Positions 5,230 to 21,926 of a DNA stretch of 32,000 bases are shown here, piece after piece (the stretch's first letter is position 1; each line of letters opens with the position of its first letter). Source of the DNA: Candidatus Saccharimonadota bacterium (lineage in GTDB: Bacteria > Patescibacteriota > Microgenomatia > UBA1406 > GWC2-37-13). The notes under the pieces were generated by a model. That model was not told the origin of the DNA. It searched no databases and saw only the letters and a list, made by a program, of their open reading frames with translations. Where the stretch lies: assembly GCA_001790095.1 (NCBI GenBank), contig MGBH01000001.1, positions 1,110,001 to 1,142,000 on the forward strand. The letters run 5' to 3'. The position numbers and the translations under genes are program-made.

Positions 5230-5892
5230 ATGAGTGAATTTCCTCGCAAGTATCCTGATAATCTAGCGTTTGTTGCCGCATCGCGTGCAGTGTCTTTTCG
5301 CGAAATAGTCTCGCAGAGTCAATCAAGAGGTATTGTCTCGGAGATACAGACAAAAAATCAGATTCTTAATCTTATGACGCCCGCTTCTATTTTGAGTCAA
5401 CCAAATCGCGATAAGCGCATTATCACGCCGGATAAATACCCAGATTTTGAAACGCTTCTTCGGGATAGACAGGCTATTCGAGATCTAATACTTGTACCAA
5501 AAAGAGCAGATGAGGTACAAACAGAATACGAACAAATGACCCACGAAACGTTTGTTCAAATTGTCACCGATCATTATTTGCACGGAGAACCGATGGCTCT
5601 TGTCAATGAACTATATCCGTCAAATCTGCCAGGAGGCGTTTTTCAGTACGTGCTTTGGATCGCTAACAGGTCAACGTCAGATGATCTTATTGCAGAATGT
5701 ATCGCACAGATATTGGGTCTATCGGAAGCATCTCCAGACAGGCTTATCATGTTTGAGCGATCAAACGACCTCTCAGCGACAGAGTACATACGTGCGGCAG
5801 TACCCCAATATCGACACATCCACATATGGACAGATAAGCCGCTTATTTCTTCTCATTCTTTCGATCAAGCTTATCAAGACCCAAACCTTTGA
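5230..5892 (+). CDS. hypothetical protein; possible degenerate HIT/GalT-like fold
   Basis: Intact ORF 3 nt after the phosphoesterase gene. NELYPSNLPGGVFQYVLWI and the C-terminal YRHIHIW loosely resemble HIT-type HxHxH motifs. Weak recognition by eye only. Confidence 0.45.
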   Translation: MSEFPRKYPDNLAFVAASRAVSFREIVSQSQSRGIVSEIQTKNQILNLMTPASILSQPNRDKRIITPDKYPDFETLLRDRQAIRDLILVPKRADEVQTEYEQMTHETFVQIVTDHYLHGEPMALVNELYPSNLPGGVFQYVLWIANRSTSDDLIAECIAQILGLSEASPDRLIMFERSNDLSATEYIRAAVPQYRHIHIWTDKPLISSHSFDQAYQDPNL

Positions 5893-6151
5893 CTCCGAAA
5901 TAGACGATAAATGCAATGACAAAAAAATCAATAAGAACACTTAAAAAATGTCCATACATAATCTTTGCTTTAAAAAAGGGAATATATGCGTTTTCTAAAC
6001 CCCTAGTGCTTCCCAATATAAGACCGAGGAATGGATTTATAATATCAGTGAGAAATGATGAGACGACCTTGGTGACCGAACCTCCCAAGATAAATCCGAC
6101 AGCAAACCCAACAACTCCCCGTTCTCTGATAAACTCTACAAATCCTTTCAT
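5843..6151 (-). CDS. mscL: large-conductance mechanosensitive channel MscL
   Basis: MKGFVEFIRERGVVGFAVGFILGGSVTKVVSSFLTDIINP is the canonical MscL N-terminus and TM1. Size about 100 aa with two TM segments. Confidence 0.85.
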   Translation of the reverse strand: MKGFVEFIRERGVVGFAVGFILGGSVTKVVSSFLTDIINPFLGLILGSTRGLENAYIPFFKAKIMYGHFLSVLIDFFVIAFIVYFGVKGLGLDKLDRKNEKK

Positions 6152-9784: not shown

Positions 9785-10867
9785 ATGAATAACTTAATTG
9801 ATTTTGTTCAAAAACATAATAAAGAATGTGGGATTGACGCTTTGTTTATATCGAATTTTTATAATATTTTATATCTGACGGGTTTTAAGACACTTTCACC
9901 TCATGAGCGTGAAGCGTTTCTTCTTATTACCCAAAAAAATGCTTACCTTTTTAGTGATGGAAGATATCATGAAAATTTTAAAGCTCAAAATTCAGATAGC
10001 ATCGAATATAGATTGCTTACCTCAGAAAAGTCATTGAAAAAACATTTAGAGGAGATTGTATACGAAGAAGGAATCACAAAGCTTGGATTTGAGAGAGAGG
10101 ACCTTAAGTTTTATGAGTATGAAGTTTTTCAAAAATCTTTATCTGTTGAGCTAGTGCCACAAGATAAAACAATACTTAAAATGAGGATGGTTAAACAAAG
10201 GAGAGAAATTGAGTATATAGAGAAAGCATGCAGAGGGGGAGATATGTGTTTAAAAGATATAGTTCCACTTATTAAAGTGGGAATAACTGAGAAAGAGATA
10301 GCGTGGAAGATTGAAAAATGGATACGAGAGAAAGGGTATGAAGTTGCTTTTGACCCCATAGTGGCTATAGATGCAAGTAGCGCCCTCCCTCATTACGACA
10401 CACAAAGTGGTAATGGTTATGTCAAAAATCGCTCTATTATCCTCATTGATATGGGGGTAAAGTATCAGGGCTATAACTCAGATATAACTCGCATGTTTTT
10501 CATGGGGAGCCAACCCGATGAAGTCAGACGTGTTTATCAAACACTTCTTGATGCTCAAGTAAAAACAATTCAACATATCTCAAAAGCAAAAAAATTATCT
10601 GAGATTGATGTGTTTTGCCGGAATAAAGTTACAGTATCAGACTATTCACATTCAACTGGTCATGGAATAGGCCTTGAAGTGCATGAGTACCCCAAAATTT
10701 CATCCCTTTCTCAAGATGTTTTGAAGGTAGGTAGCGTCTTTACCATTGAGCCGGGTATTTATATACCAGGCAGATGGGGTATGAGGATAGAAGATACTGT
10801 GGCTATTGAGACGAGTGATCAGATTCTGGTTTTGACGAGGTATCCGAAGGAGCTATGTCTTCTTTAG
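9785..10867 (+). CDS. M24-family Xaa-Pro aminopeptidase/dipeptidase
   Basis: IDMGVKYQGYNSDITR, HSTGHGIGLEVHEYP, EPGIY, RIEDTV; creatinase-like N-domain. Confidence 0.85.
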   Translation: MNNLIDFVQKHNKECGIDALFISNFYNILYLTGFKTLSPHEREAFLLITQKNAYLFSDGRYHENFKAQNSDSIEYRLLTSEKSLKKHLEEIVYEEGITKLGFEREDLKFYEYEVFQKSLSVELVPQDKTILKMRMVKQRREIEYIEKACRGGDMCLKDIVPLIKVGITEKEIAWKIEKWIREKGYEVAFDPIVAIDASSALPHYDTQSGNGYVKNRSIILIDMGVKYQGYNSDITRMFFMGSQPDEVRRVYQTLLDAQVKTIQHISKAKKLSEIDVFCRNKVTVSDYSHSTGHGIGLEVHEYPKISSLSQDVLKVGSVFTIEPGIYIPGRWGMRIEDTVAIETSDQILVLTRYPKELCLL

Positions 10868-13800
10868 GTTTATTATCTTCAATTTTCATCTCTTGTGCAG
10901 CTTCAAAATGTTTCTCTTCTTCTTTAGGTTTTGCCTTTTTGAGTTCGACCAACTCTTCGTCATCTTTTGATTTTTCTTTCAATTTTTCTGTAATCTGTCT
11001 TTCCATCTCTTTCATCTCTTTAACGTGTTTTGCTGCTTCAAGTTTTGCTTTAAGATATACAGCAAGCTCTTCTCCCTTTAGATTATTGATAAGGAAGATA
11101 GGTAAGATATATCCCAGGTCATCAACTCCTTGAGCCTTTAATTTTTCATCAGGTGACATGAGTTTGTTAAGGGTGTTGGTGATAAAGACGATGTCTTGAT
11201 CGACCCATTCCTCACGAGAAGAAAGATTTTCTGATACCGGCACCTCTCCTTTTTCATACTGTGAAGTCCACATTTTCTTCACCTCTTCATAGTCTTCTAT
11301 AGATACGCTAGGCGGAATAGAAAGAGTTTGTTCAATATGTTTTTCCGGTTCGGTTACGAGCGGAGTTTGAGTTGAGATGATTTTCTTTACCTGCTCTTCT
11401 TTGAGGTTTTCTTTTTCTGCAATTTTCTTGATGGTGTCTTTATCTGCAACTGCTACTTTTGCAACTTCCTTGATGACGGTAATCACTTTTGTTTTTTCAA
11501 TACCTGTTTCTTTACAGACATTGGTTATGATCTCAGCAGGGGTAGCTACTTGTTGGTTGAGTATCGGTGTATTGGCAACACGGTCAACCTCTTTTATCAC
11601 CGACTCAACTTTTTCTCTACTTATCCCCGTGGCTTGATAAATCTGATTTATTGTCTGTGTTTTAAACGAAGAAGATGAGGTGGTAGATGGGGCGGATGCA
11701 GAGATAGAGTTTTTATATGAGGCGAGAACTGTTTGTACCTGAGAGGAGGATGCGCTGGTATTTTTTGCAATGGTATTGACCATGTTGCTGTTTGATGCAA
11801 CTGAACTGACAAATGAACTATTTACTGATTGAGAAGAGGATATGGATGGTGAGTATGCAGAGACGGTGTTGATGCTTTTAGTTGCTTGGGCAACATTTTG
11901 GACATTTTGATTGAGTGAGCTAATGACTGACTGTATTTGAGGAGAGGAGACGTTGGTATTTTTTGACACTGTGTTGACAAGGCTACTATTTGCAGCAACA
12001 GAGGAGAAAAACGAATTGTTTACTGAAGATATTTTGTCTTGTGAAACATTTGCTTTGTATGATACAACCTGTGTAAGGGATGAGGTTTGAGGTACTGTCC
12101 GCAATAGTTCTTCTCGGCGCGTAGTCTGTTCGATGTGGGATGATGAGATGGAGGAGAGGATCTGTTTTGCCATGCGGTCTTCTTTTATGGTACGGTTGAA
12201 GAGTTCGGTGCGGATATTCATGAATTTCTGTCTTTCGGTTGGAGTCTCTGCTTTGGTTGGTTGAGAAAGGAAATCTAAATTTTTTCGAATAGTTTCATTT
12301 GATTGTTTATTTGTCTCAAAACGGGCGATATCAGTGATCTTATTCATAGAGAGATTCAAAGATTTACTTATTTCCTCTGTTTTTGTTTTTTTGATTTCCT
12401 CCATAGTCTCAAGACGTACTTTTATTGGTACTTCTACTTCATGAGGTAATTTGAGTGCTGTACCAGTTGAAGATGGAGAGGGCATGGGGGAGGAAGGTGG
12501 CGGTTTTGGTCCGGGAGCACCCCTTGTCTGATCATACATAGACATAAGGATATTTTTCATAGCATATATTCCATCACAGCAATAATCACGGAAGATACGA
12601 AGAAGCCACCATGGGAAAAAGGTCACAGCCCACAGCATGATGAGTGTAATGATGTATTCTGCAAATGTATCGACATAGTTTCCGTTATTTAAAGCAGACA
12701 ACTTTTGTAGATTGACCTGGGCAGGTCCTCCATAAGTGATATTGATACCCGTAGGGTAGATATATCCGACAAGATTGTTCACGCGCGAAAAATCAAAAGG
12801 AAATGGAATGCCTCGTTTCCAGATAGTGGCAAGACCTCCCAAAAAAAGGGCAAAGAGAGGTCCGTAAAAAACCCACTGGAAAAATACGCCAATCCAGATC
12901 CAACCGATATTGCGGATAAATACAAACGGCATAAGAAGAGCCAGGAACGGAGCGACAAATACAAGAAACCACAGAAGGATTTTTCTTAAAATAAGCATGA
13001 TTCCCATGACGTAGTAGGTAACATTGGTTATCTTAAGAAGTACGATTTCAGAACCCACCGCTTCACGTACTTTGTAATTTAGATCGCGGCATCCTACAAA
13101 ATCAACATAACTTTGTTCTTGTGAGACTGACCCGGTAAAGTAAATATTAAAAAGCTTGTCTCCTCCTAAGGTCTCAACAAAGAACTTCATGATGATCTCT
13201 GACATCTGAATGATAAAGATAGTCAGAGCATAAGAAAATAAAATATACAGGAGTCCCATCACGATCTTTGATATGATAGGCCAAACCTGTACTCTTAATT
13301 GGAAGTTTGCCTGTTGTCCGATGATAAGTCCTATGCCAAAGAGAGCAGATACGAGTATAAATAGAAAAAGCGCCACATTTTTTGTTGCATCCCATATGAC
13401 ACGAATGGTTGGGTGATTATCTATTGCGCTTTTACTTATGGCCCAGTAGATAAACTGGCGGGCTCTTTCATTTGATTTTCCTTGAGTTGTCACTTCCTCA
13501 TCAAGCGCCCAGTAATGATTTTTGAGAGGGTTTTTCATGAACTCAGAATAACTTGTTACGCAGGTCTCATTGAAGCTTGTATATGCATCTTTTAGTCCGG
13601 TTGGACAGTTGCCAAGATGAGAAGCTGTTGAACAAGGAAGCGGATCATAGGCGCCTTGGATAGCAGCAGTACTTGAAGAAGAACCACCACCGCCACCACC
13701 ACCACCTCCACCACCACCACCTCCATCATCATCGTCATCTCCACCTCCACCATCACATTCACACAATTCGTTTATATCATCTGTTTCTGTACAACCATCA

Positions 13801-13982
13801 GCGCCATCCGCACAAGTGCCACATACGCGTCCACGTCCACACTGTCCTCCTCCTATAGTATGGCATTCATTCCAATCTCCACACGTGGCTGCTTGAACAA
13901 CATGATTTGTATATGGTATGACTTTAAGCATGAGAGAAAGAACAAGCATCACGCAAAAAAAAACGGGAAAAAATCTCCTCAT
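10803..13982 (-). CDS. 1059-aa polytopic membrane protein; candidate VirB6/TrbL-like channel component with a long repetitive C-terminal tail
   Basis: Signal peptide, Cys-rich module, G14-D5-G4 tract, at least 6 TM segments in the region around residues 200-470, a Pro-rich linker (GAPGPKPPPSSPMPSPSS), then Ser-rich 66-aa repeats and a K/E-rich tail. The VirB6-like call is inferred from architecture and from the neighbouring PrgI/VirB4 genes. An in-frame ATG at 13988 is an alternative start. Confidence 0.6.
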   Translation of the reverse strand: MRRFFPVFFCVMLVLSLMLKVIPYTNHVVQAATCGDWNECHTIGGGQCGRGRVCGTCADGADGCTETDDINELCECDGGGGDDDDDGGGGGGGGGGGGGGSSSSTAAIQGAYDPLPCSTASHLGNCPTGLKDAYTSFNETCVTSYSEFMKNPLKNHYWALDEEVTTQGKSNERARQFIYWAISKSAIDNHPTIRVIWDATKNVALFLFILVSALFGIGLIIGQQANFQLRVQVWPIISKIVMGLLYILFSYALTIFIIQMSEIIMKFFVETLGGDKLFNIYFTGSVSQEQSYVDFVGCRDLNYKVREAVGSEIVLLKITNVTYYVMGIMLILRKILLWFLVFVAPFLALLMPFVFIRNIGWIWIGVFFQWVFYGPLFALFLGGLATIWKRGIPFPFDFSRVNNLVGYIYPTGINITYGGPAQVNLQKLSALNNGNYVDTFAEYIITLIMLWAVTFFPWWLLRIFRDYCCDGIYAMKNILMSMYDQTRGAPGPKPPPSSPMPSPSSTGTALKLPHEVEVPIKVRLETMEEIKKTKTEEISKSLNLSMNKITDIARFETNKQSNETIRKNLDFLSQPTKAETPTERQKFMNIRTELFNRTIKEDRMAKQILSSISSSHIEQTTRREELLRTVPQTSSLTQVVSYKANVSQDKISSVNNSFFSSVAANSSLVNTVSKNTNVSSPQIQSVISSLNQNVQNVAQATKSINTVSAYSPSISSSQSVNSSFVSSVASNSNMVNTIAKNTSASSSQVQTVLASYKNSISASAPSTTSSSSFKTQTINQIYQATGISREKVESVIKEVDRVANTPILNQQVATPAEIITNVCKETGIEKTKVITVIKEVAKVAVADKDTIKKIAEKENLKEEQVKKIISTQTPLVTEPEKHIEQTLSIPPSVSIEDYEEVKKMWTSQYEKGEVPVSENLSSREEWVDQDIVFITNTLNKLMSPDEKLKAQGVDDLGYILPIFLINNLKGEELAVYLKAKLEAAKHVKEMKEMERQITEKLKEKSKDDEELVELKKAKPKEEEKHFEAAQEMKIEDNKPKEDIAPSDTSSKPESDHSSQ
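13683..13754 (-). repeat. (GGN)14-(GAY)5-(GGN)4 trinucleotide low-complexity tract inside the 1059-aa gene
   Basis: The plus strand reads ACC/GCC/TCC triplets x14, ATC/GTC x5, then TCC/ACC x4, encoding G14 D5 G4. Confidence 0.9.
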
Positions 13983-14008
13983 ATATTCATGATAATTGAA
14001 ATCAGATT

Positions 14009-14037
14009 AATTGACAATAGAATGTAATAAAGATATT
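14009..14037 (+). promoter_or_regulatory. sigma70-like promoter candidate: TTGACA, 17 nt, TATTAT, in the divergent intergenic region
   Basis: TTGACA 14009..14014 and TATTAT 14032..14037. A second -10-like TATATT (14041..14046) sits 7 nt before ATG 14054. On the opposite strand, TTGTCA (14010..15), 17 nt, then TATCAT (13987..92) faces the 1059-aa gene. Confidence 0.35.
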
Positions 14038-14053
14038 ATTTATATTAAGCATT

Positions 14054-16045
14054 ATGAATATAATGAAAAACAAAACGATTTTATTTATAGCCTCAATTTT
14101 TTATATTTTAGTTTTATCACTCAATATTCCACCTGTTAAGGCAGAGACAATACAAGGGATTGATATGAAATGTTTGACTGGTATCTATTGCGACTCTGAT
14201 GGTGCTGATTGTCAAGGTCCGGGAGTAAAATATCACAGGGAAAAAATTAGTTTAAAAACAGGAGACACTGTTCCTGACGGAAAAGAAACATATATTATTC
14301 TATGTCTAAGCGATTTAAAACCAGCCCCAGACGGTACGCGGACGATGTGTACGACAGGTAATTCTGCAAAGGATATTGCTTTTTTTAATCAGGACAACCT
14401 AAGTGATATTAAGAATAGAGTTAATGGGTATGATTTTGAAAAGATAGAAGACCTTGACCCGGATCCACCGACAAGGTATGGCAATACAAAGATACGACAT
14501 GGGTTATGGACTGAGGATGGATCAACAAGAAAATGTTCTGAAAGCGATTGTTCCGGTGAACCGATCATCGCCTCAGGCGGCACTATCGGAGTCTGGCAAT
14601 GGGAAGATTTCATTCCGACAAACTCAGGTCAAGATGCAGAGGGAAACGAGAAAACACCAACCCATATGTGGTATCGGGCATATGAGACAGATCCACAACC
14701 TACTCAAATTCCAGGCGCAGGGCCAGGAATTGACGCTTCACAAAAACTTGGAGGATTAGATTTTGAGAAACTTGTTCTTGCTCCAGATTCAGCAGATTGT
14801 GTAAGTATATCGTGGGATCCGGAGGGGCGTATTTTTGATGCTCAGACTCTTGAACCCATAAAAGGAGCTAGAGTGGAGCTTCATGTTAAACAGAAAGACG
14901 GTCTATATAGATTTATGACGAGAGACGATTTCGTTAATCTTAACTTTATTAATCCTCAGATAACAAGCGCTGATGGGGCATTTACATACCTTGTTCCGGA
15001 TGGCGACTATAAACTAATAATGTATCCACCTAACGGATATTCATTTCCGACAGAAACATCATATGTAAATCCCGCCTATCTTCAAGCATACTGGAATCTA
15101 TACCCAAGCCAAACAGGAGTAGAGATTATTCAGAGGGGGAAAATACAACATAGGGATATTCCCCTTTTTTCTGCAACAAGAAAAGAGATTCGCGATCCTA
15201 TTTTAATGGGAACAACAACCCGAAGCAACGGGATAGATGGCTCATTGATTGTTGAGGGTACTGTTTCTCACCCTCTTACGAAAGTGATTGCCCATTCATA
15301 TAAAGTGGGTAAAGATAATCCAAACAGTAAAATATCTTATCGGCCAGTTGGTTCAGTTCAAGCTGATAAAATAGGTAAGTTTAAACTGATTATAAACCAA
15401 AACGACTTTGCGCAAGATGAGTTCTTCGGAGAATTGGAACTGAGTAAATATAACTATCAAACAAAATCCTTTAGTATCGTAAATGCTAAAAAACAATCAT
15501 TTGAGCCTCTTCCTACATATCTTGAGGGTTATGCTTATGATGAGAGCGGTAAAATAATACCGAATGCAAAGATAGAGATTCACGTTGGGTTCTCAAAACA
15601 GCCATATACATGGACTACAGCAGACGATAAGGGATATTTTAAAATCGAAAAACAATACCTTCCCAACATACCATATGAGATACAGTATAAATCTTCAAAC
15701 GGTTCGGTGGTAACTTCTACAACTTCAAAGTTTATTACGCAAAATCAATCATTCATTACCTCAAATAAGATCAGTCTGTATGGTGAGGCACCCTCATCAA
15801 ACCGTACGAAAAAACAATCAGAAACTGCTGGAAAGGATTTAACCTCTTTGAACCTTCAAAAAAGTGGAAGCGGTAACAATATGTCTAGTCAAAGTCAAAA
15901 AAATATTGCATCTTTTAATCCAAGTAAAAGTAATGCAAACCCTCTTATTCTTATTTTTATTCTTCTCATAATTCTTTTAAGTGGAGTGGCAATGGGAATA
16001 CTTCTCTATATGAAGAATAAACAATCCTATACTTCAAAGTGGTAA
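14054..16045 (+). CDS. secreted, C-terminally membrane-anchored surface protein with Cys-rich N-domain and carboxypeptidase-regulatory-like beta-sandwich domains
   Basis: Signal peptide ...NIPPVKA/ET. GRIFDAQTLEPIKGARVELHVKQKDG...DGAFTYLVPDGDYKL and GYAYDESGKIIPNAKIEIHVG...DDKGYFKI are CarboxypepD_reg-like strands. C-terminal TM segment LILIFILLIILLSGVAMGILLY is followed by KNK. Confidence 0.65.
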   Translation: MNIMKNKTILFIASIFYILVLSLNIPPVKAETIQGIDMKCLTGIYCDSDGADCQGPGVKYHREKISLKTGDTVPDGKETYIILCLSDLKPAPDGTRTMCTTGNSAKDIAFFNQDNLSDIKNRVNGYDFEKIEDLDPDPPTRYGNTKIRHGLWTEDGSTRKCSESDCSGEPIIASGGTIGVWQWEDFIPTNSGQDAEGNEKTPTHMWYRAYETDPQPTQIPGAGPGIDASQKLGGLDFEKLVLAPDSADCVSISWDPEGRIFDAQTLEPIKGARVELHVKQKDGLYRFMTRDDFVNLNFINPQITSADGAFTYLVPDGDYKLIMYPPNGYSFPTETSYVNPAYLQAYWNLYPSQTGVEIIQRGKIQHRDIPLFSATRKEIRDPILMGTTTRSNGIDGSLIVEGTVSHPLTKVIAHSYKVGKDNPNSKISYRPVGSVQADKIGKFKLIINQNDFAQDEFFGELELSKYNYQTKSFSIVNAKKQSFEPLPTYLEGYAYDESGKIIPNAKIEIHVGFSKQPYTWTTADDKGYFKIEKQYLPNIPYEIQYKSSNGSVVTSTTSKFITQNQSFITSNKISLYGEAPSSNRTKKQSETAGKDLTSLNLQKSGSGNNMSSQSQKNIASFNPSKSNANPLILIFILLIILLSGVAMGILLYMKNKQSYTSKW

Positions 16046-16056
16046 ACAATAAAAAC

Positions 16057-16800
16057 TTATGAGTGATGGGGGTGTTTACCGTGGGTTTTTTTATGAGTAA
16101 AATAGGTATTCTTTTTTGAGTAAATCAAGACAGCTGCTGCAGTAAGTAAAAAAAGGCCTCCTGCTATAGAACCAATATTTTTTGGAATATCAAAACCGGA
16201 TTGCGGCAATGCGGTTGGAGGAGGAGGGGGGGGAGAGGTTGGAGCAACAGGACATACACATGAAACCTCTTCAGGACATGTTTGTGCGCGGCAGTAGCCA
16301 GATGTTTGTCCGCTTGCGATATAACAATATAAACCACTCGGACATTCTGAAGAACTGGTACAGGTGTTGTTACAGACAGGGACGGGGGTTGGGCTTGGAG
16401 TTGGTGTCCACAATGTACACAACTCCGTTGATCCAGACTCAGCCGCTATTATTTTGAATACCACAGTTGCATATATACCTGTGCCGGTAAATCCAGCAGT
16501 ATTAGTGCCGGTAAACAGAAGTTTTCCTGTGCCCTGTGATGTGTCGACCGTAACGCTGTTCATAGCAGCTCCTGGAGCCGAGCTTACATATTCAAGGAAC
16601 TGCGTATCATAGGTCATTCCTGTTTGGATGGTGTTTATAGTTGCCCCCTGTGTATCCATGTTTACGGTAAAGGTGACTTCTTGTCCGCGTGAAAGTTCTC
16701 CTGATGGAGGAACGAGCTCAAATCGTACTGCGAAAGCAGATGGAGCTGATACAAAAAAAGCTATTATAAAAAATAAAGACACTCCTAGTTTTTTCACCAT
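16057..16800 (-). CDS. cohesin-like surface protein with Cys-knot module and LPxTG-type (LPQSG) sortase sorting signal
   Basis: Signal peptide ...SAFA/V. FELVPPSGELSRGQEVTFTVNMDT...LEYVS...ATVVFKIIA resembles a cohesin fold. Then a CxxxC-rich segment, PPPPPP, LPQSG, a hydrophobic stretch and a KKN...H-rich tail. Confidence 0.65.
   Translation of the reverse strand: MVKKLGVSLFFIIAFFVSAPSAFAVRFELVPPSGELSRGQEVTFTVNMDTQGATINTIQTGMTYDTQFLEYVSSAPGAAMNSVTVDTSQGTGKLLFTGTNTAGFTGTGIYATVVFKIIAAESGSTELCTLWTPTPSPTPVPVCNNTCTSSSECPSGLYCYIASGQTSGYCRAQTCPEEVSCVCPVAPTSPPPPPPTALPQSGFDIPKNIGSIAGGLFLLTAAAVLIYSKKNTYFTHKKTHGKHPHHS
16226..16233 (-). repeat. C8 homopolymer (G8 on plus strand) in the cohesin-like gene, just 5' of the sorting-signal codons
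   Basis: Coding strand is TCT CCC CCC CCT CCT CCT CCA ACC GCA TTG CCG CAA (S P P P P P P T A L P Q). An unusual G/C run for this AT-rich sequence. Confidence 0.9.
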
Positions 16801-16854
16801 ATCCTCATCATAATATACCTTTTTTTATTTCACAAGAGCCAAATGCGCTTTTTT

Positions 16855-16863
16855 TGTTATAAT
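16855..16863 (+). promoter_or_regulatory. extended -10 TGTTATAAT, 10 nt upstream of ATG 16874
   Basis: Read directly from the sequence, in the divergent region between the cohesin-like and DUF5667-like genes. Confidence 0.4.
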
Positions 16864-16873
16864 AAGCGTACGT

Positions 16874-17416
16874 ATGATAAAAAAGTTAGCTATATTGTTG
16901 TTGGCATTTCTCTTTATTGTTCCGGCCTTTTTTTACATTATTACTACTTCATATTCACAATCGATCACTTTGTCTGAAAAAAAAGTAATATATGATCTGC
17001 CTTATGCAGGGATACTTCCTGATAATCCGTTTTATATTTTGAAACAGATGCGTGATATTGTGATTGAGCTGTCCACAAGAGATCAGATGAAAAAAGCGGA
17101 AATACTTCTCTTATCTTCAGATAAAAAGATACACATGGCTCTTCTTCTTGCTAAAAAAGGTAAAAGCAAACTGATGATTGATACTTTGACTCAAGCAGAA
17201 GAGCAGTCTCTGCGGATTCCAGGCCTTATAACAAGTTCAAAAAAACAAGGAGTTGGTCCTAAAGAAGGATTTGTATATCGACTAAAACTCAGCAATGTAA
17301 AACATCGAGAAGTGATAGAAGAGCTCATCAAGAACCTGCCGCAAGGCAAGGAAAAGGAGATGGGTATAATCTTTGATTTGAACAATAAAATAAGAAAACA
17401 GCTTGATACGTTATAA
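16874..17416 (+). CDS. DUF5667-like membrane-anchored protein
   Basis: N-terminal TM segment, then LPDNPFYILKQMRD, the hallmark P-x-x-P-F-Y-x-L-K motif of DUF5667 proteins common in CPR genomes. Confidence 0.55.
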   Translation: MIKKLAILLLAFLFIVPAFFYIITTSYSQSITLSEKKVIYDLPYAGILPDNPFYILKQMRDIVIELSTRDQMKKAEILLLSSDKKIHMALLLAKKGKSKLMIDTLTQAEEQSLRIPGLITSSKKQGVGPKEGFVYRLKLSNVKHREVIEELIKNLPQGKEKEMGIIFDLNNKIRKQLDTL

Positions 17417-17460
17417 AGAATTGTATTTTGTGCAATTGTTTGATATATTATTTCTTCTAA

Positions 17461-17466
17461 AAGGAG
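17461..17466 (+). promoter_or_regulatory. Shine-Dalgarno sequence AAGGAG for rpsA
   Basis: AAGGAG lies 6 nt upstream of ATG 17473. It shows that canonical RBSs exist in this genome, in contrast to the SD-less genes listed in the findings. Confidence 0.6.
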
Positions 17467-17472
17467 AACCAC

Positions 17473-18576
17473 ATGCCTAAAAAAACAAAAACCAAATCAA
17501 CCAAAGAAAAGGAGGTCATACCAAGCGGAGTTCATCCGATGGAGTTGCTGCTTCAAAAGACAAAATCTATCAAACTAAAGAAAGGAAACGAGATAGAAGC
17601 TTCAATCATATCAATCTCTAAAAAAGGAGCCCTTTTTGATATAGGAGCAAAAGCATATGCAGTTCTGGGAGAAAAAGAATTAAAAGAAATCTCAACCTAT
17701 TTACCTTATCTTAAAGCAGGCGAAAAGGTGCAGGCACGTATCATATCAGAGGAATCAAAAGAAGGCTTCCCCGTTCTATCGCTGCGGAAGTTTTTTGAAA
17801 AAGGAAAGTGGGAGATACTTAAGATAAAAAAAGAAAAAGAAGAAGAAATAGAAGTAGTATGTGGTGAATATGGCAAGGGAGGAGTATTTGTCGATTTTAT
17901 GGGTATTCGAGGTGTAATTCCTAAAATTCAGCTTACCGAAGACTTTCTCCAGAGTCCCGAGAAGCTTAATGGCCAAAAGATCAAAGTAAAAATTTTAGAG
18001 GTTGACGAAAAAAAGAACCGCCTTGTTGTCTCGCAAAAAATAGCAGCTCTTAAAATATCTCAAAAAGAACTTCTTGAGGGATTTGAAAAGATTGAGGTAG
18101 GAAAGACATATAAAGCAAGCGTGCTTGGAGTTTCTGAGTTTGGTATCTTTTGTGAAGTGGTTGGAGTAGAGGGACTTATCCATATTTCGGAAATCTCTTG
18201 GGAGAAAGTGTCAGACCCTTCCGTATTTGCAAAAATCGGTGATAAAATTGACGTCGTGGTTGTTGAAAAAAATATAAATGATCTCAAATTAAACCTGTCA
18301 ATCAAACGCTTAAGTCAAGATCCATGGGAAAGCATCGATGAAAAATATCCCAAAGACAAAGAAGTTAAGGGAGAAGTAGTAAGACAAGAAAGATATGGAT
18401 ATTTTGTTCGACTTGAGCCAGGAATAGAAGGTCTTGTTCACATAAGTAAGCTCACCGGCAAAGAAGATCTTAAGCTCGGGTCAACAATCAAAGCCTTTAT
18501 TGAAAAGGCAGATAAAAGGTCAAGGAAGATGAGTCTTATTCTTACACAAAAGGAAAAGCCGGTAACATATAGATAA
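17473..18576 (+). CDS. rpsA: 30S ribosomal protein S1 (four S1 domains)
   Basis: Repeated S1/OB motifs: G..I.A.I..I...GALFDIG, GGVFVDFMGIRGVIP, FGIFCEVVGVEGLIHISE, YGYFVRLEPGIEGLVHISK. Confidence 0.85.
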   Translation: MPKKTKTKSTKEKEVIPSGVHPMELLLQKTKSIKLKKGNEIEASIISISKKGALFDIGAKAYAVLGEKELKEISTYLPYLKAGEKVQARIISEESKEGFPVLSLRKFFEKGKWEILKIKKEKEEEIEVVCGEYGKGGVFVDFMGIRGVIPKIQLTEDFLQSPEKLNGQKIKVKILEVDEKKNRLVVSQKIAALKISQKELLEGFEKIEVGKTYKASVLGVSEFGIFCEVVGVEGLIHISEISWEKVSDPSVFAKIGDKIDVVVVEKNINDLKLNLSIKRLSQDPWESIDEKYPKDKEVKGEVVRQERYGYFVRLEPGIEGLVHISKLTGKEDLKLGSTIKAFIEKADKRSRKMSLILTQKEKPVTYR

Positions 18577-18590
18577 AGTTTTTTCATTCT

Positions 18591-18618
18591 TTATACTTTA
18601 TACTTAATACTCTATACT
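18591..18618. repeat. four tandem heptamers TTATACT TTATACT TAATACT CTATACT
   Basis: Read directly from the sequence. The last unit supplies TATACT (18613..18618), 6 nt upstream of the ATG at 18625. Confidence 0.85.
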
Positions 18619-18624
18619 GATTGT

Positions 18625-19461
18625 ATGGAGCAGCATCCGATCCCCAGACAAATCACTTCTTTTGAGTATAAACTGATTGGTTTTATGACGCTAAAACAGT
18701 TTATATATCTGGTCATATTTATACTCTTAGCGTATACTGTATATGCAGTTTTTCCCATACCGCTTCTCAACATACTTTTAGCAATAGGTGTTGGTTTGCT
18801 TGGGATAGGTCTTGCCTTTGTTCCAATCAACGACAGACCGCTTGATGTATGGATAAGAAATTTTTGGAGACGCTTGACTTCGCCTACGCAGTATTTTTAT
18901 CACAAAAACAACCCTCCCATCTCTATTTTTCAAAATCTTTACTTTGTTGCAGATCCTCATAGAGTCGTTGCTCATGTTGAATCTGCAAAAATGCTGTCAA
19001 AATATCTAGCTTCAACAAAGCAGGTAATGATCCCAAATATGAGGAAACAGCAGATACAAAAAACAGTCATAAGTCCCCTCAACACTCTTCGTGTTTTCCC
19101 TCCGTCCAAAGGCTCAGGGAGTACTTCAAAACCAATGCTTGTAAATCCTGCGGCGCTCACTCAGCCGGTAGGATCTAGCTCAGGAGAAAAAAAGCCTTTT
19201 TTTGTAGGAGAGATAAAAAACAACAAACATATCTCTCTTCCCGGCATACTGATATATGTAAAAGATATAAATAATACTCCTGTGAGGCTTCTTAAGACAA
19301 ATCCGCATGGTATATTTGCAACCTATAATCCACTCCCTATGGGAGAGTATTCATTTGAGATGAAGGATCCAAAGAACATCTATTTTTTTGATACAATGAA
19401 AATACAGATCAAAAACACAAACAAAGACAATATTGAAATTATGTCTAGGGAAATGCTATAA
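18625..19461 (+). CDS. PrgI-family (VirB3-like) membrane protein fused to a C-terminal beta-sandwich domain
   Basis: IPRQITSFEYKLIGFMTLKQFIYLV followed by two TM segments and INDRPLDVWIRNFWRRL matches the PrgI family pattern. C-terminal LPGILIYVKDINNTPVRLLKTNPHGIFATYNPLPMGEYSFEM is CarboxypepD_reg-like. Confidence 0.6.
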   Translation: MEQHPIPRQITSFEYKLIGFMTLKQFIYLVIFILLAYTVYAVFPIPLLNILLAIGVGLLGIGLAFVPINDRPLDVWIRNFWRRLTSPTQYFYHKNNPPISIFQNLYFVADPHRVVAHVESAKMLSKYLASTKQVMIPNMRKQQIQKTVISPLNTLRVFPPSKGSGSTSKPMLVNPAALTQPVGSSSGEKKPFFVGEIKNNKHISLPGILIYVKDINNTPVRLLKTNPHGIFATYNPLPMGEYSFEMKDPKNIYFFDTMKIQIKNTNKDNIEIMSREML

Positions 19462-19493
19462 AAATTGATTAAATTGTATTTCTTGTGATTTGG

Positions 19494-19532
19494 AATTTGT
19501 TTGTAATTTGTTATTTGTAAATTGTAATTTGT
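19494..19532. repeat. tandem heptamer array AATTTGT(ttgt)AATTTGT TATTTGT AAATTGT AATTTGT
   Basis: Read directly from the sequence. It includes an exact 11-nt direct repeat TTGTAATTTGT at 19501..19511 and 19522..19532. Degenerate ATTGT/TTTGT units extend back to about 19462. Confidence 0.85.
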
Positions 19533-19537
19533 ATTAT

Positions 19538-20191
19538 ATGCCCGTTACAAAACCCGTTTCACCAGTCAAAGCATCTACTCAAAGCTTTATTGAGGTCGAA
19601 GATGTAAAAGACGATGTATTATTACTTAAGGATTTTTCAGCAGCAATTGTGATTGAGGTTGGTGCTGTCAACTTTTGGCTTTTGTCAGCTGAGGAACAGA
19701 CATCGACTATATATGCATACGCAAGCCTTATCAACTCTCTTTCATTTCCAACCCAGATCCTTATTCTTTCAAAAAAAATGGATATATCTTCATACCTTGA
19801 GTATCTAGAAACGAAGATAAAGATGAAGAAAGACGATCTTATGAGAGTAAGGCTTGAGAGTTATAAAGAATTCATCAAAACGATTGTCAAAAAGAATAGC
19901 GTATTGGAAAAGAAATTCTATTTTGTTGTGCCGTTTTCTCCTCTTGAGCTTGGTATATCTGGGGTTTCATCAGGCCTCAAAAAAGAATACGTCATTGCTC
20001 GGGCCAAAACAGCTCTTTATCCCAAACGGGACCATCTACTTCGTCTTTTGGCAAAGATAGGTTTGAGGGCAACCGTCATGCAAAAACAAGAACTTGTCGA
20101 ACTTTTCTATAATCTATACAATCCATCATCAACCGGTCGGATGCTTGCTCCGATTGATAGTTATACTGACGTTATCATGACAAGTAACTAA
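19538..20191 (+). CDS. stand-alone protein resembling the N-terminal (non-ATPase) domain of Gram-positive VirB4/Tn916-ORF16-type conjugation ATPases
   Basis: STQSFIEVEDVKDDVLLLKDFSAAIVIEVGAVNFWLLSAEEQTSTIYAYASLINSLSFPTQILILSKKMD follows the pattern (I.dg.i....y..ilev.piNf.L.S.eEq..i...f..fL..l....Qi). Start is taken at ATG 19538, because the TTG at 19490 would translate the repeat array. The stop lies 1 nt before the virB4 ATG. Confidence 0.5.
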   Translation: MPVTKPVSPVKASTQSFIEVEDVKDDVLLLKDFSAAIVIEVGAVNFWLLSAEEQTSTIYAYASLINSLSFPTQILILSKKMDISSYLEYLETKIKMKKDDLMRVRLESYKEFIKTIVKKNSVLEKKFYFVVPFSPLELGISGVSSGLKKEYVIARAKTALYPKRDHLLRLLAKIGLRATVMQKQELVELFYNLYNPSSTGRMLAPIDSYTDVIMTSN

Positions 20192-20192
20192 T

Positions 20193-21926
20193 ATGGCAAA
20201 TTCAAAAGTCACTCCTCCAAGCGGTACACAAAACGTTGCCTCGGTTATGGCAAAAGGGACAGTAACAGTAAAAGACCTTATTGCTCCGTCATTTGTTGAG
20301 GTAGATTTCACTCATCTAAAGATCGATGAAAAGTATTACCGGACGTTATATGTAACTGGATATCCGCGATATGTCTCTGCCAACTGGCTATATTCTCTCA
20401 TTACCTTTGATCATCCTCTGTATTTATCTATGTATATATACCCAACAGAATCAAAATCTATTCTTGATGAATTAAAGAGAAAGATCGCGGAGATGGAGGC
20501 AACTATTGAAGCTGAGGTTAAAGCGGGTAAGGTAGTTGATCCGACAGTCCAAGTAGCTCTTGATGACGCTCTTGCTCTTCAGGCTGAACTTGCCAAGGGG
20601 GCAGAACGATTTTTCCAATTTGGTCTTTATATCACGATTCCCGCCGACACGAAAGAAGAGCTGGAATCTGTTACAAAAGAGGTTGACTCTGCACTTTCCT
20701 CAATTCTTGTGACAGCAAGGCTGGCCATACTTGAGATGGAGGAAGGATTTAAGTCAACTATGCCGATGTTTTGCGACAAACTAAGCGTTTGGCGCAACAT
20801 GGATACGACATCTCTTGCTACAACATTTCCTTTTGCAACAGCTTCTCTTACTCGAAATGAAGGCATTTTATACGGTATTAATCAACACGATGGCAGTCTT
20901 ATCATCTTTGATCGTTTTACTTTAGAAAATGCAAATTCAGTCATACTGGGTAAGTCCGGAGGTGGAAAGAGCTTCTTTGTAAAACTTGAGGCCTTAAGGC
21001 TTCTTATGATGGATGTTGATGTTATCATCGTTGATCCAGAAAACGAATATCGCAAGCTGACCGAGACGATGGGTGGAGAATTTGTCGTATTCTCAACAAC
21101 ATCTCAATACAAGATAAACCCCTTTGATCTTACGACCGATCATCCCGAACCGGATGAGCTTTCCAACAAAATATTAGATCTTCACTCACTCATGAAGGTT
21201 ATCATGGGCGATCTTACTCCAGCTCAAGACGCTCTTCTGGACCGCGCTCTGGTTTTGACATATCGTGAAGCTGGTATTACACAAGATCCCACAACTTTCA
21301 AAAACGATGCTCCTCTTCTTGAAGATTTATATAAGATTTTCATGGGTATGGAGACTCCTGAGGCAAAAGAAATGGCTGGTCGATTAGAAAAATTTGTCAT
21401 GGGGTCTGCTGCTGGTATTTTTAACCAAAAATCTAACTTTGATATAAAAAACCACTTCACGGTTTTTGGCATACGGGATCTTGAGGAGAACCTTCGTCCG
21501 GTTGCCATGTATATCGTACTTGATTATATTTGGAATACAGTGAGGCGAGGAGAAGTAAAGAAGAGAGTACTTATTGTGGATGAGGCATGGTATCTCATTA
21601 AACACAAGGACTCAGGCGCATATCTGCATAATTTTGCAAAGCGAGCACGTAAATATCATCTCGGTTTGACGACTATCACTCAAGACGTTGAAGATTTTCT
21701 TGCAACAGAGGAGGGTAAAGCCATAGTTACCAACTCAAGTTTACAGATCATACTAAAACAGTCCACAGCCGCAGTGGATAAGATTACCGAGACCTTCTAT
21801 CTCACCGGAGGAGAAAAACACTTTCTTCTTTCAGCCGGAGTAGGCGAGGGACTTTTCTTTGCTGGTCAATCTCACGTGGGTTTTCGCGCAATTGCATCAG
21901 ATGAAGAGCGAGGACTTATCGAATAA
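20193..21926 (+). CDS. virB4: VirB4/TraC-family type IV secretion ATPase
   Basis: Walker A VILGKSGGGKSFF, Walker B RVLIVDEAWYL, TTITQDVEDF. N-domain YYRTLYVTGYPRYVSANWLYSLI...LSMYIYP is typical of the CagE/TrbE/VirB4 family. Confidence 0.85.
   Translation: MANSKVTPPSGTQNVASVMAKGTVTVKDLIAPSFVEVDFTHLKIDEKYYRTLYVTGYPRYVSANWLYSLITFDHPLYLSMYIYPTESKSILDELKRKIAEMEATIEAEVKAGKVVDPTVQVALDDALALQAELAKGAERFFQFGLYITIPADTKEELESVTKEVDSALSSILVTARLAILEMEEGFKSTMPMFCDKLSVWRNMDTTSLATTFPFATASLTRNEGILYGINQHDGSLIIFDRFTLENANSVILGKSGGGKSFFVKLEALRLLMMDVDVIIVDPENEYRKLTETMGGEFVVFSTTSQYKINPFDLTTDHPEPDELSNKILDLHSLMKVIMGDLTPAQDALLDRALVLTYREAGITQDPTTFKNDAPLLEDLYKIFMGMETPEAKEMAGRLEKFVMGSAAGIFNQKSNFDIKNHFTVFGIRDLEENLRPVAMYIVLDYIWNTVRRGEVKKRVLIVDEAWYLIKHKDSGAYLHNFAKRARKYHLGLTTITQDVEDFLATEEGKAIVTNSSLQIILKQSTAAVDKITETFYLTGGEKHFLLSAGVGEGLFFAGQSHVGFRAIASDEERGLIE

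Follow-up and report, generated by a model that had tools for sequence, protein, structure and literature searches.

The closest described relatives of the locus reported here are the type IV secretion systems (T4SSs) of Patescibacteria (the Candidate Phyla Radiation, CPR). In a survey published in 2025, VirB4 was present in 2,417 of 3,035 Patescibacteria genomes, and almost all of these VirB4 proteins fell into one monophyletic clade nested in the monoderm MPF-FATA group (PMC12102498). TrsD and PrgI/VirB3 were the commonest partners of VirB4, the relaxase was absent from most clusters, and coupling-protein homologues were rarely found near virB4. The T4SS genes were chromosomal and often located by dnaA/dnaN, arrays of VirB2-like pilins were frequent, and no adhesins were detected. 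VirB6 homologues were described as 'scarce' in Microgenomatia, 'suggesting extreme sequence divergence' (PMC12102498). In transposon sequencing (Tn-seq) of Southlakia epibionticum ML1, the T4SS locus SEML1_0006-0019 and the pilins were essential for epibiotic growth (PMC10633639), and this essentiality was independent of comEC, which is not itself essential (PMC12857230). Herein, we analyzed 32,000 nt of contig MGBH01000001.1 (positions 1,110,001 to 1,142,000; hereafter the window), in which eight intact genes occupy 10803-21926, with all open reading frames (ORFs) where a preliminary description of the same DNA had placed them. The locus is likely to encode a Patescibacteria-specific T4SS of monoderm conjugation ancestry that has lost its link to a relaxase and is composed of a motor module and a channel/surface module.

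Like the T4SSs of the Patescibacteria clade, the one in the window is chromosomal and combines an MPF-FATA VirB4 with adjacent TrsD and PrgI/VirB3 and a putative VirB6, among housekeeping neighbors and with neither relaxase nor coupling protein in the cluster. Unlike them, it is a Microgenomatia (Roizmanbacterium) locus whose VirB6 is of a divergent extended form, with a tail of ~570 amino acids (aa). The locus has no pilin array or peptidoglycan hydrolase, and virB4 does not lie by dnaN/dnaA, where it sits at most Microgenomatia loci. Moreover, a cohesin-like protein with a predicted LPxTG-type signal and a CnaB-like β-sandwich protein accompany the VirB6, and the survey makes no mention of such proteins. 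The preliminary description had treated a machine of this kind as merely suspected in CPR bacteria; it had by then been surveyed (PMC12102498) and shown to be essential in S. epibionticum (PMC10633639). The general system was published between 2023 and 2025, and the present locus leaves that picture unchanged.

The locus is chromosomal and not mobile, because housekeeping genes flank it (those for M20 and M24 peptidases, gltX, era, a two-component system and an exporter of the MacAB type), its GC content is even with no compositional break, and no relaxase, VirD4-type coupling ATPase, integrase or replication protein was found among the 33 ORFs scanned in the window. In addition, an identical 663-aa surface protein is encoded on a contig of 1,216,931 bp (Ca. 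Roizmanbacteria bacterium RIFOXYB2_FULL_38_10, GCA_001790045.1, MGBF01000001.1). The preliminary description had listed the same absences, together with that of a VirB1-like hydrolase, had noted the housekeeping flanks and had argued for a chromosomal CPR-type T4SS over an ordinary conjugative element; the scan of the 33 ORFs agrees with it on each of these points.

The motor module consists of three consecutive genes on the forward strand, encoding a PrgI/VirB3-like protein of 278 aa (18625..19461), a TrsD-like protein of 217 aa (19538..20191) and a VirB4 ATPase of 577 aa (20193..21926). Residues 5-91 of the first protein matched PF12666 (PrgI) at 38.1 bits, with a cut-off of 27. The VirB4 protein scored 406 bits against the NCBIfam model conju_CD1110 (cut-off 325), the match beginning at position 180 of the model, and it also matched Pfam P-loop_TraG at 100.6 bits and CagE_TrbE_VirB at 22.2 bits (cut-off 21). 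Both its Walker A (GKSGGGKS) and Walker B (LIVDEAW) motifs, as read in the translation, were intact. The nearest solved structure was the C-terminal domain of Thermoanaerobacter VirB4 (4AG5, E = 6e-45), and the ATPase domain showed a weak sequence match to TrwK, the VirB4 of R388. Judged by these profiles, the VirB4 is of the monoderm (MPF-FATA, CD1110-like) type. The PrgI, VirB4 and CD1110 matches bear out the PrgI/VirB3-like, VirB4 N-domain-like and VirB4 ATPase assignments that had been proposed for the three genes.

The TrsD-like ORF, 233 aa as originally listed, matched positions 101-279 of VirB4_plasma, the mycoplasma VirB4 model, at 48 bits, as well as positions 24-171 of CD1110, whereas its match to the TrsD profile was weak (E = 0.021). 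In two Microgenomatia relatives, TrsD and VirB4 were found as a single ORF (L048:390-2834, 814 aa; L056:1877-4381, 834 aa). Because it is collinear with the N-terminal part of the VirB4 profiles and is fused to VirB4 in these two loci, TrsD is read here, from sequence, as a detached N-terminal segment of VirB4, arising from an old and conserved fission and not from pseudogenization. The two genes are separated by 1 nt in the window and by a 4-nt overlap or a gap of a few nt in most relatives, and they are probably translationally coupled. The start of the TrsD-like gene had been given as TTG 19490; this TTG lies inside a (TTTGTAA)n spacer and is probably wrong, and ATG 19538 is the start adopted here, which shortens the protein from 233 to 217 aa. 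The spacer itself is an AT-rich stretch of 76 nt (19462-19537) with ~4.9 copies of TTTGTAA, running from the PrgI stop to the TrsD start. The corresponding spacer measures 2-10 nt in close relatives and 45-93 nt in some more distant ones, which points to a lineage-specific insertion in the window.

Among genome-contig candidates, 591 VirB4 relatives were confirmed, and the locus counts for the motor module refer to the best 80 of them. VirB4 identity in these 80 loci ranged from 53% in other Microgenomatia to 93% in the closest Roizmanbacteria. PrgI, TrsD and VirB4 were adjacent in nearly all of them, and the PrgI cluster and the TrsD cluster were each recovered in 70 of the 80. The named records that are credibly labeled were all metagenome-assembled genomes (MAGs) of CPR bacteria (Roizman-, Gottesman-, Woese-, Daviesbacteria and others). 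Many MAG records with close VirB4 relatives are titled 'uncultured Gammaproteobacteria/Pseudomonadales bacterium' (e.g., L001, L003, L006 and L008), and these labels are evidently wrong.

The PrgI/VirB3-like protein also carries a C-terminal extension of ~180 aa (residues ~95-278; 18900-19461 in the window), which has a beta-rich look and weak matches to SdrD_B and Y_Y_Y; a Pfam search with the isolated C-terminus returned nothing significant. Given the two transmembrane helices of the protein, this extension should be cytoplasmic. PrgI homologues at other Microgenomatia loci are usually longer, with a cluster median of 352 aa and a maximum of ~500 aa.

For comparison with monoderm MPF-FATA conjugation systems, we considered CTn2 of Clostridioides difficile (with the CD1110 VirB4), pCF10 Prg/Pcf, pIP501 Tra and pGO1 Trs. 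The locus in the window resembles these in its CD1110-fitting VirB4, its PrgI-type VirB3, its TrsD-type protein, a surface protein that is predicted to be wall-anchored in the LPxTG manner and the lack of an outer-membrane core. It differs from them in having no relaxase, no type IV coupling protein (T4CP) and no oriT context, and in not residing on a mobile element. In Gram-positive conjugation systems, PrgB, PrgC and TraO are the LPxTG surface proteins that accompany the channel; the surface proteins of the window are not homologous to them. Moreover, relatives of the window locus have VirB2-like pilins, whereas Gram-positive conjugation systems are without them (PMC12857230).

The channel/surface module begins with a gene on the reverse strand (10803..13982) for a polytopic membrane protein of 1059 aa. 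In order, this protein comprises a signal peptide, an ectodomain in which three Cys are conserved, five transmembrane helices, a Pro-rich linker, conserved helical motifs, variable Ser/Thr-rich repeats, a conserved domain of ~115 aa and a Lys/Glu-rich end. Residues 105-487 (12522..13670, reverse strand), delimited by family alignments, the AlphaFold2 model and Foldseek, comprise the conserved ectodomain and the five-helix core. The AlphaFold2 model of this region had a predicted local distance difference test score (pLDDT) of 72 and a predicted template modeling score (pTM) of 0.71, with five long helices following the N-terminal ectodomain. When the model was compared with the PDB by Foldseek, the top five matches were all R388 TrwI/VirB6 chains (probability 0.98-1.0, E = 0.02-0.05, template modeling score (TM-score) 0.31-0.45, ~300 aligned columns), and the next match had a probability of 0.11.

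The sequence evidence for VirB6 is that of the family. A profile of residues 105-487 retrieved 1290 cluster representatives at E < 1e-3, of which 268 also passed E < 1e-30, and the majority measure 700-3000 aa; this family size became visible by exhaustive profile search, whereas a word-index protein search had given just 68 sequences, mostly truncated close relatives. Pfam TrbL/VirB6 was matched by 20 of 50 family members at E ≤ 0.01, with a best value of 3.5e-7, and no other family recurred. One member (P0199) scored 26.0 bits against a TrbL/VirB6 gathering score of 25.9, over profile positions 3-189 of 215. A search of the VirB6-family profile against PDB sequences returned chance matches and no VirB6. 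On the basis of the fold and the family-level Pfam matches, the modeling supports the 1059-aa protein as a very divergent extended VirB6. The preliminary description had called it VirB6/TrbL-like by architecture: the fold and the family agree with that, whereas the protein has no profile match of its own. Five transmembrane helices imply an N-terminus outside and a C-terminus inside the cell, as in VirB6. This extended family may be the VirB6 that has been reported as scarce in Microgenomatia.

'Extended VirB6' proteins have been described as having at least five hydrophobic helices plus large hydrophilic domains (review PMC12857230). The window protein is like them in having, after a polytopic core, an extensive hydrophilic region towards the C-terminus, and unlike those described in that its tail has no detectable family likeness and contains its own conserved domain of ~115 aa and variable Ser/Thr-rich repeats. 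The conserved C-terminal cytoplasmic domain (aa ~885-1000; 10983..11330, reverse strand; SVSxEDYEEVKKMW...LKAKLEAAK) is kept in members that are 27-31% identical in the core. Pfam searches with the isolated tail and with the isolated C-terminal domain gave nothing significant. With respect to the R388 Trw T4SS (PDB 7O3V, 8RT9, 8RTD and 7O41), the likeness is that TrwI/VirB6 is the best structural match of the five-helix core; the identity is 12-13%, and a long cytoplasmic tail is missing from TrwI. The R388 system is of the diderm kind and includes VirB5, VirB8, a coupling protein and an outer-membrane complex; in its structure, a VirB6 pentamer sits at the base of the stalk as the foundation for pilus and stalk.

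The tail of the 1059-aa protein (10983-12520 in the window) contains repeated short helical modules of the form TGI[S/E]xxKVxxVIKEV and two Ser/Thr/Asn-rich repeats of ~40 aa. Faint, sub-threshold Bac_DNA_binding and HTH_9 matches were seen in it and likewise in the homologue P0070. In other Microgenomatia, polytopic proteins of 400-580 aa encoded 5-9 kb upstream of virB4 have the same first two transmembrane helices (E from 1e-11 to 4e-4); examples are L041:3178-4722, L035:4011-5762, L029:28-1278, L062:2448-4181, L075:3564-5213, L080:3993-5543, L036:863-2383 and L070:3715-5340. One of them had a weak TrbL match and another a weak TrbC/VirB2 match. They are probably a shorter form of VirB6.

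Back to back with the VirB6-like gene lies the gene of a 663-aa surface protein on the forward strand (14054..16045), whose description draws on its AlphaFold2 model, Foldseek and its conserved adjacency to the VirB6-like gene; the NCBI record starts at ATG 14063 and is 660 aa long. The protein consists of a signal/transmembrane helix, a Cys-containing N-domain, three tandem β-sandwich domains, a disordered Ser/Asn linker and a C-terminal transmembrane anchor. Its model had a pLDDT of 77 and a pTM of 0.71, with the C-terminal transmembrane helix at aa 627-652. The top PDB folds were the Gram-positive pilins BcpA, EbpC and EbpB, the group B Streptococcus 2b backbone pilin and SdrD B domains, with Foldseek probabilities of 0.95-0.99, E values of 1e-6 to 1e-4 and low global TM-scores of 0.10-0.25. 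CarboxypepD_reg was matched at 30.8 bits, under the cut-off of 32.3, and a Pfam search with the isolated N-domain found nothing significant. The protein has no LPxTG motif and ends in a plain transmembrane helix. According to the model, its likeness to sortase-assembled pilins and to adhesins of the MSCRAMM type (microbial surface components recognizing adhesive matrix molecules) is one of fold only.

The next gene, on the reverse strand (16057..16800), encodes a cohesin-domain protein of 247 aa, which matched PF00963 at 33.2 bits (cut-off 24.1); its homologue in L084 scored 24.6 bits. The domain is accompanied by a Pro/Thr linker, an 8-Cys insert and a C-terminal LPQSG followed by a transmembrane helix and a basic tail. 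An LPx[TS]G or PPTSG motif with transmembrane helix and K/R tail is conserved across 58 distinct cohesin-like homologues, 37 of which carry LPxTG/LPxSG and most of the others the PPTSG-type variant. The anchor models were matched below threshold (Gram_pos_anchor, 15 against 20 bits; the TIGR model, 14.7 against 15.9 bits), and the C-terminus is predicted to be a sortase-type signal. The cohesin-like assignment of the preliminary description is thereby upheld by profile, with the LPQSG motif visible in the translation, and its DUF5667 and rpsA assignments by their profile matches.

A Cys-rich module with similar spacing had been proposed to be common to the VirB6-like, 663-aa and cohesin-like proteins and to reflect a shared disulfide-stabilized assembly. 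The three Cys-rich stretches do exist, but their spacings differ, their similarity is at chance level and those of the VirB6-like and cohesin-like proteins are inserts confined to a few close relatives, so that a shared module was rejected. The spacings are [5,7,5,2,6,9,1] in the VirB6-like and [3,5,5,10,4,5,1] in the cohesin-like protein, and the alignments were no better than those of shuffled sequences: even for the best-scoring pair, 57 of 2000 shuffles did as well, before any correction for the 10 comparisons made. The lineage-specific insert of the VirB6-like protein covers aa 33-103 (13674..13886, reverse strand) and is made up of its 8-Cys stretch and, after it, an Asp/Gly run; among ~70 homologues, this insert was seen in the window and L088 only, and its Gly run is visible in the DNA as tandem copies of ACC at 13683-13725. 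In the cohesin-like family, the 8-Cys insert was present in 5 of the 58 distinct homologues. Of extracytoplasmic Cys residues, the VirB6 ectodomain conserves three and the 663-aa family conserves four.

To describe the neighborhood of the VirB6-like gene, we used a metagenome scan of 80 loci with VirB6-like homologues 59-79% identical to the window protein, and neighbor counts refer to loci with enough flank on the contig. A cohesin-like gene was located no more than 6 kb ahead of the VirB6-like gene, on its upstream side, in 47 of 55 loci, a 663-aa homologue adjoined it in 36 of 41, and an M24 peptidase gene followed downstream in 41 of 52. The three genes (the triad) stood together without interruption in 39 loci, mainly in one of two orders, and had at least seven different neighbors on each side. 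A pair of T4SS_pilin genes (PF18895) was found near the VirB6-like gene in 11 of 26 loci, at a distance of 2-5 kb in L084 and L085. A ComM-type gene stood beside the module in 12 of 26 loci and was the immediate upstream neighbor of the triad in 19 of 39. By contrast, virB4 was within reach in 3 of the 26 loci whose upstream flank was 6.5 kb or longer, and in 2 of the 12 with ~9-10 kb on both sides. The surface proteins had been expected to co-occur with virB4; this comparison of synteny identifies the VirB6-like gene as their partner instead.

The commonest layout was pilin, pilin, comM, 663-aa (-), cohesin-like (+), VirB6-like (+) and M24 (-). The series DUF5667-rpsA-PrgI-TrsD-VirB4-gltX replaced pilin-comM only in close relatives of the window (L001-L003, L018, L087, L092, L097, L106 and L107). 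The window thus shows, as a trait of its lineage, two islands side by side that are otherwise separate, and the label 'dispersed' in the preliminary description does not fit, as the locus is more compact than most relatives, whose two halves lie apart.

The VirB2-like pilins (PF18895) of the relatives occur as pairs or triplets of two distinct subtypes, one with a conserved CxVDGVPTLKC motif, by a ComM/Mg-chelatase gene and the triad (L084:230-1561, L114, L116, L134, L136, L161 and others). A pilin profile gave more than 1310 matches, which makes this a very large family, and none of the 120 matches listed could be tied to the source genome of the window. Within the window, neither Pfam searches of small ORFs nor tblastn with 35 pilins from related loci found a T4SS pilin; a two-TM (transmembrane) ORF at 5843-6151 was considered as one and proved to be MscL. 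The pilin genes probably lie elsewhere in the source genome. In addition, genes of 558 aa by virB4 or by the cohesin-like gene were considered as divergent 663-aa homologues and rejected, being instead a PBP2-like transpeptidase and a SpoIID-like protein. The latter, a 558-aa coiled-coil and SpoIID-like protein by an assignment read by eye from the sequence, is encoded immediately upstream of the genes for the cohesin-like and VirB6-like proteins at two Roizmanbacteria loci (L012:18573-20249 and L016:18532-20208), and it could be a wall-remodeling stand-in for VirB1.

The following arrangement would account for these results. PrgI/VirB3, the TrsD-like protein and VirB4 would form a motor at the cytoplasmic membrane, in which VirB4 hexamers, by analogy with solved T4SSs, would dock on VirB3 and power assembly and transport. 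The channel/surface module would comprise the extended VirB6, the membrane-anchored 663-aa protein and the cohesin-domain protein, the last anchored to the wall by a sortase. Their conserved linkage and folds suggest that the two surface proteins form a wall-spanning or host-contact part, like PrgB, PrgC and TraO, and the cohesin domain could dock onto the 663-aa protein, the VirB6 ectodomain or a pilin. In most relatives, this second module would be kept by a VirB2-like pilin pair and comM, away from virB4, and in the window lineage a rearrangement would have brought the modules next to each other, separated by DUF5667 and rpsA. The function, as suggested by the Tn-seq of the cultivated Saccharibacterium, would be contact-dependent transfer of macromolecules between epibiont and host and not plasmid or integrative and conjugative element (ICE) conjugation. 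A pilus-forming, contact-dependent translocation machine is the best-supported reading of the locus: the ATPase, its detached N-domain, VirB3, the VirB6 core and the architectures of the surface proteins are seen in sequence or fold, and their assembly and part in host interaction are deduced from solved T4SSs and from the genetics of Saccharibacteria.

A further-reaching proposal is possible and is put forward tentatively: the T4SS of Roizmanbacteria, and perhaps of Microgenomatia more widely, may be bipartite, with a VirB3-TrsD-VirB4 motor island and a contact island. The contact island would hold the VirB2-like pilin pair, ComM, the CnaB-like protein, the cohesin-domain protein and the extended VirB6 with its conserved cytoplasmic tail. 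The surface proteins would then be the first candidates for wall-spanning or host-adhesion parts, and the linkage to ComM and the faint HU/helix-turn-helix-like modules in the tail of VirB6 would hint at a nucleic-acid cargo.

Several results weigh against a T4SS composed of these two modules. No VirB1-like or other peptidoglycan hydrolase, VirB8-like protein or T4SS pilin was found in the 32-kb window. For the 1059-aa protein itself, Pfam and NCBIfam gave no match, TrbL (PF04610) being absent even at E ≤ 1, and its fold match is weak in absolute terms (the E values and TM-scores given above) on a model whose confidence is medium. The distance from the VirB6-like gene to virB4 in relatives usually exceeds 10 kb; because this linkage is not consistent, the connection between VirB6 and the motor is argued from homology and from the pilin neighbors. 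The M24 peptidase gene is conserved as well, so that mere synteny between relatives that are still fairly close could explain part of the conservation of the triad. Moreover, at identities of ~45% or lower (L081, L083 and L086), the cohesin-like and 663-aa partners were not seen by the VirB6-like gene.

If the sparse linkage to virB4 (3 of 26 loci, 2 of 12 with full flanks) is taken at face value, the triad might be an independent envelope module, for adhesion or wall organization for instance, brought beside virB4 by a chance rearrangement. The lack of a VirB6 profile match for the 1059-aa protein itself and the low TM-scores would suit this. However, VirB6 accounts for all of the top five PDB folds, TrbL/VirB6 is the sole recurrent Pfam family, and VirB2-type pilin genes are frequent neighbors of the triad. 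Microgenomatia also seem otherwise to be without VirB6, and polytopic proteins with the same first two helices are encoded 5-9 kb upstream of virB4 in other members of the class. An independent envelope module is therefore quite unlikely. It is highly improbable that the locus is a decayed or domesticated ICE remnant that no longer works. Such a remnant might lack the relaxase, T4CP, VirB1, VirB8 and pilin and have its VirB4 split in two, as in the window; yet the TrsD/VirB4 split is kept across related loci, two lineages having one undivided ORF instead, every ORF is intact and the catalytic motifs are retained, and conservation follows the host lineage over the range of 53% to 93% identity. 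The housekeeping neighbors, the uniform composition and the essentiality of a homologous system in a cultivated relative also stand against decay.

The frequent ComM neighbor of the triad raises a different alternative, namely a machine for uptake or exchange of DNA or RNA that imports host nucleic acid, like archaeal Ced or Helicobacter ComB. In keeping with it, the VirB4 gave weak matches to CedB and CedD, the repeated helical modules of the VirB6 tail have their faint Bac_DNA_binding/HTH matches, comF, recG and radA occur in T4SS loci of class ABY1 (PMC12102498), and a 2026 preprint proposes host-RNA feeding via T4SS-like tubes. However, the VirB4 misses the Ced equivalog models by a wide margin (CedB, 55.9 bits against a cut-off of 700; CedD, 29.6 bits against 600), and the conjugation-type CD1110 model fits it far better. 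The DNA-binding matches in the tail are far under threshold, comM is not in the window, and in S. epibionticum the T4SS is essential while comEC is not. Such an uptake machine is a live, though rather unlikely, alternative, and a T4SS of monoderm conjugation ancestry working in contact with a host remains our preferred interpretation.

Few machines are known without which CPR bacteria cannot live as epibionts, and the T4SS is one of these. In Microgenomatia, a class that ranks among the largest of the CPR, VirB6 had seemed to be missing. What this locus and its relatives add is the putative VirB6 assignment of a large Microgenomatia family, a conserved neighborhood of surface-protein, pilin and comM genes, the occurrence of TrsD-VirB4 in fused and split forms, and the lineage-specific merging of two islands. 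This parts list may serve the structure prediction of complexes, metatranscriptomic tests of co-expression and the reading of epibiont-host contact tubes in cryo-electron tomography.

Between the two modules lie the genes for a membrane-anchored DUF5667 protein of 180 aa (16874..17416, forward strand; PF18915 at 33.3 bits, cut-off 27) and for rpsA (17473-18576, forward strand), with four S1 domains. The DUF5667 gene accompanies rpsA in relatives, being 6.5 kb from the VirB6 module in L084 and L085, and no independent link of DUF5667 to the T4SS was found, so its membership of the machine is uncertain. The DUF5667, rpsA, PrgI, TrsD, VirB4 and gltX genes share one orientation with short gaps, and the terminator scan found no convincing terminator between them; for these reasons, co-transcription of the T4SS genes with housekeeping genes is plausible.

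The divergent intergenic region of 71 nt between the VirB6-like and 663-aa genes (13983..14053) holds two back-to-back promoter-like sites. The first, TTGACA-17-TATTAT at 14011-14039 on the forward strand, matches the consensus at 11 of 12 positions and is the top match of the region. The second, TTGTCA-17-TATCAT at 14017-13989 on the reverse strand, overlaps the first, and both are matches to the consensus and no more. Overall, the promoter and terminator scans were at chance level, and the total of sites in the region was not above chance.

No tRNA genes or Rfam families were found in the window, the rest of which also encodes EamA transporters, MscL and Fur. At the other end of the VirB6-like gene, the M24 peptidase gene is convergent with it, and the 3' ends of the two overlap by 65 nt (10803-10867). 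In the distant members L081 (4629-7244) and L086 (5460-8288), clpB is located directly or one gene downstream of the VirB6-like gene.

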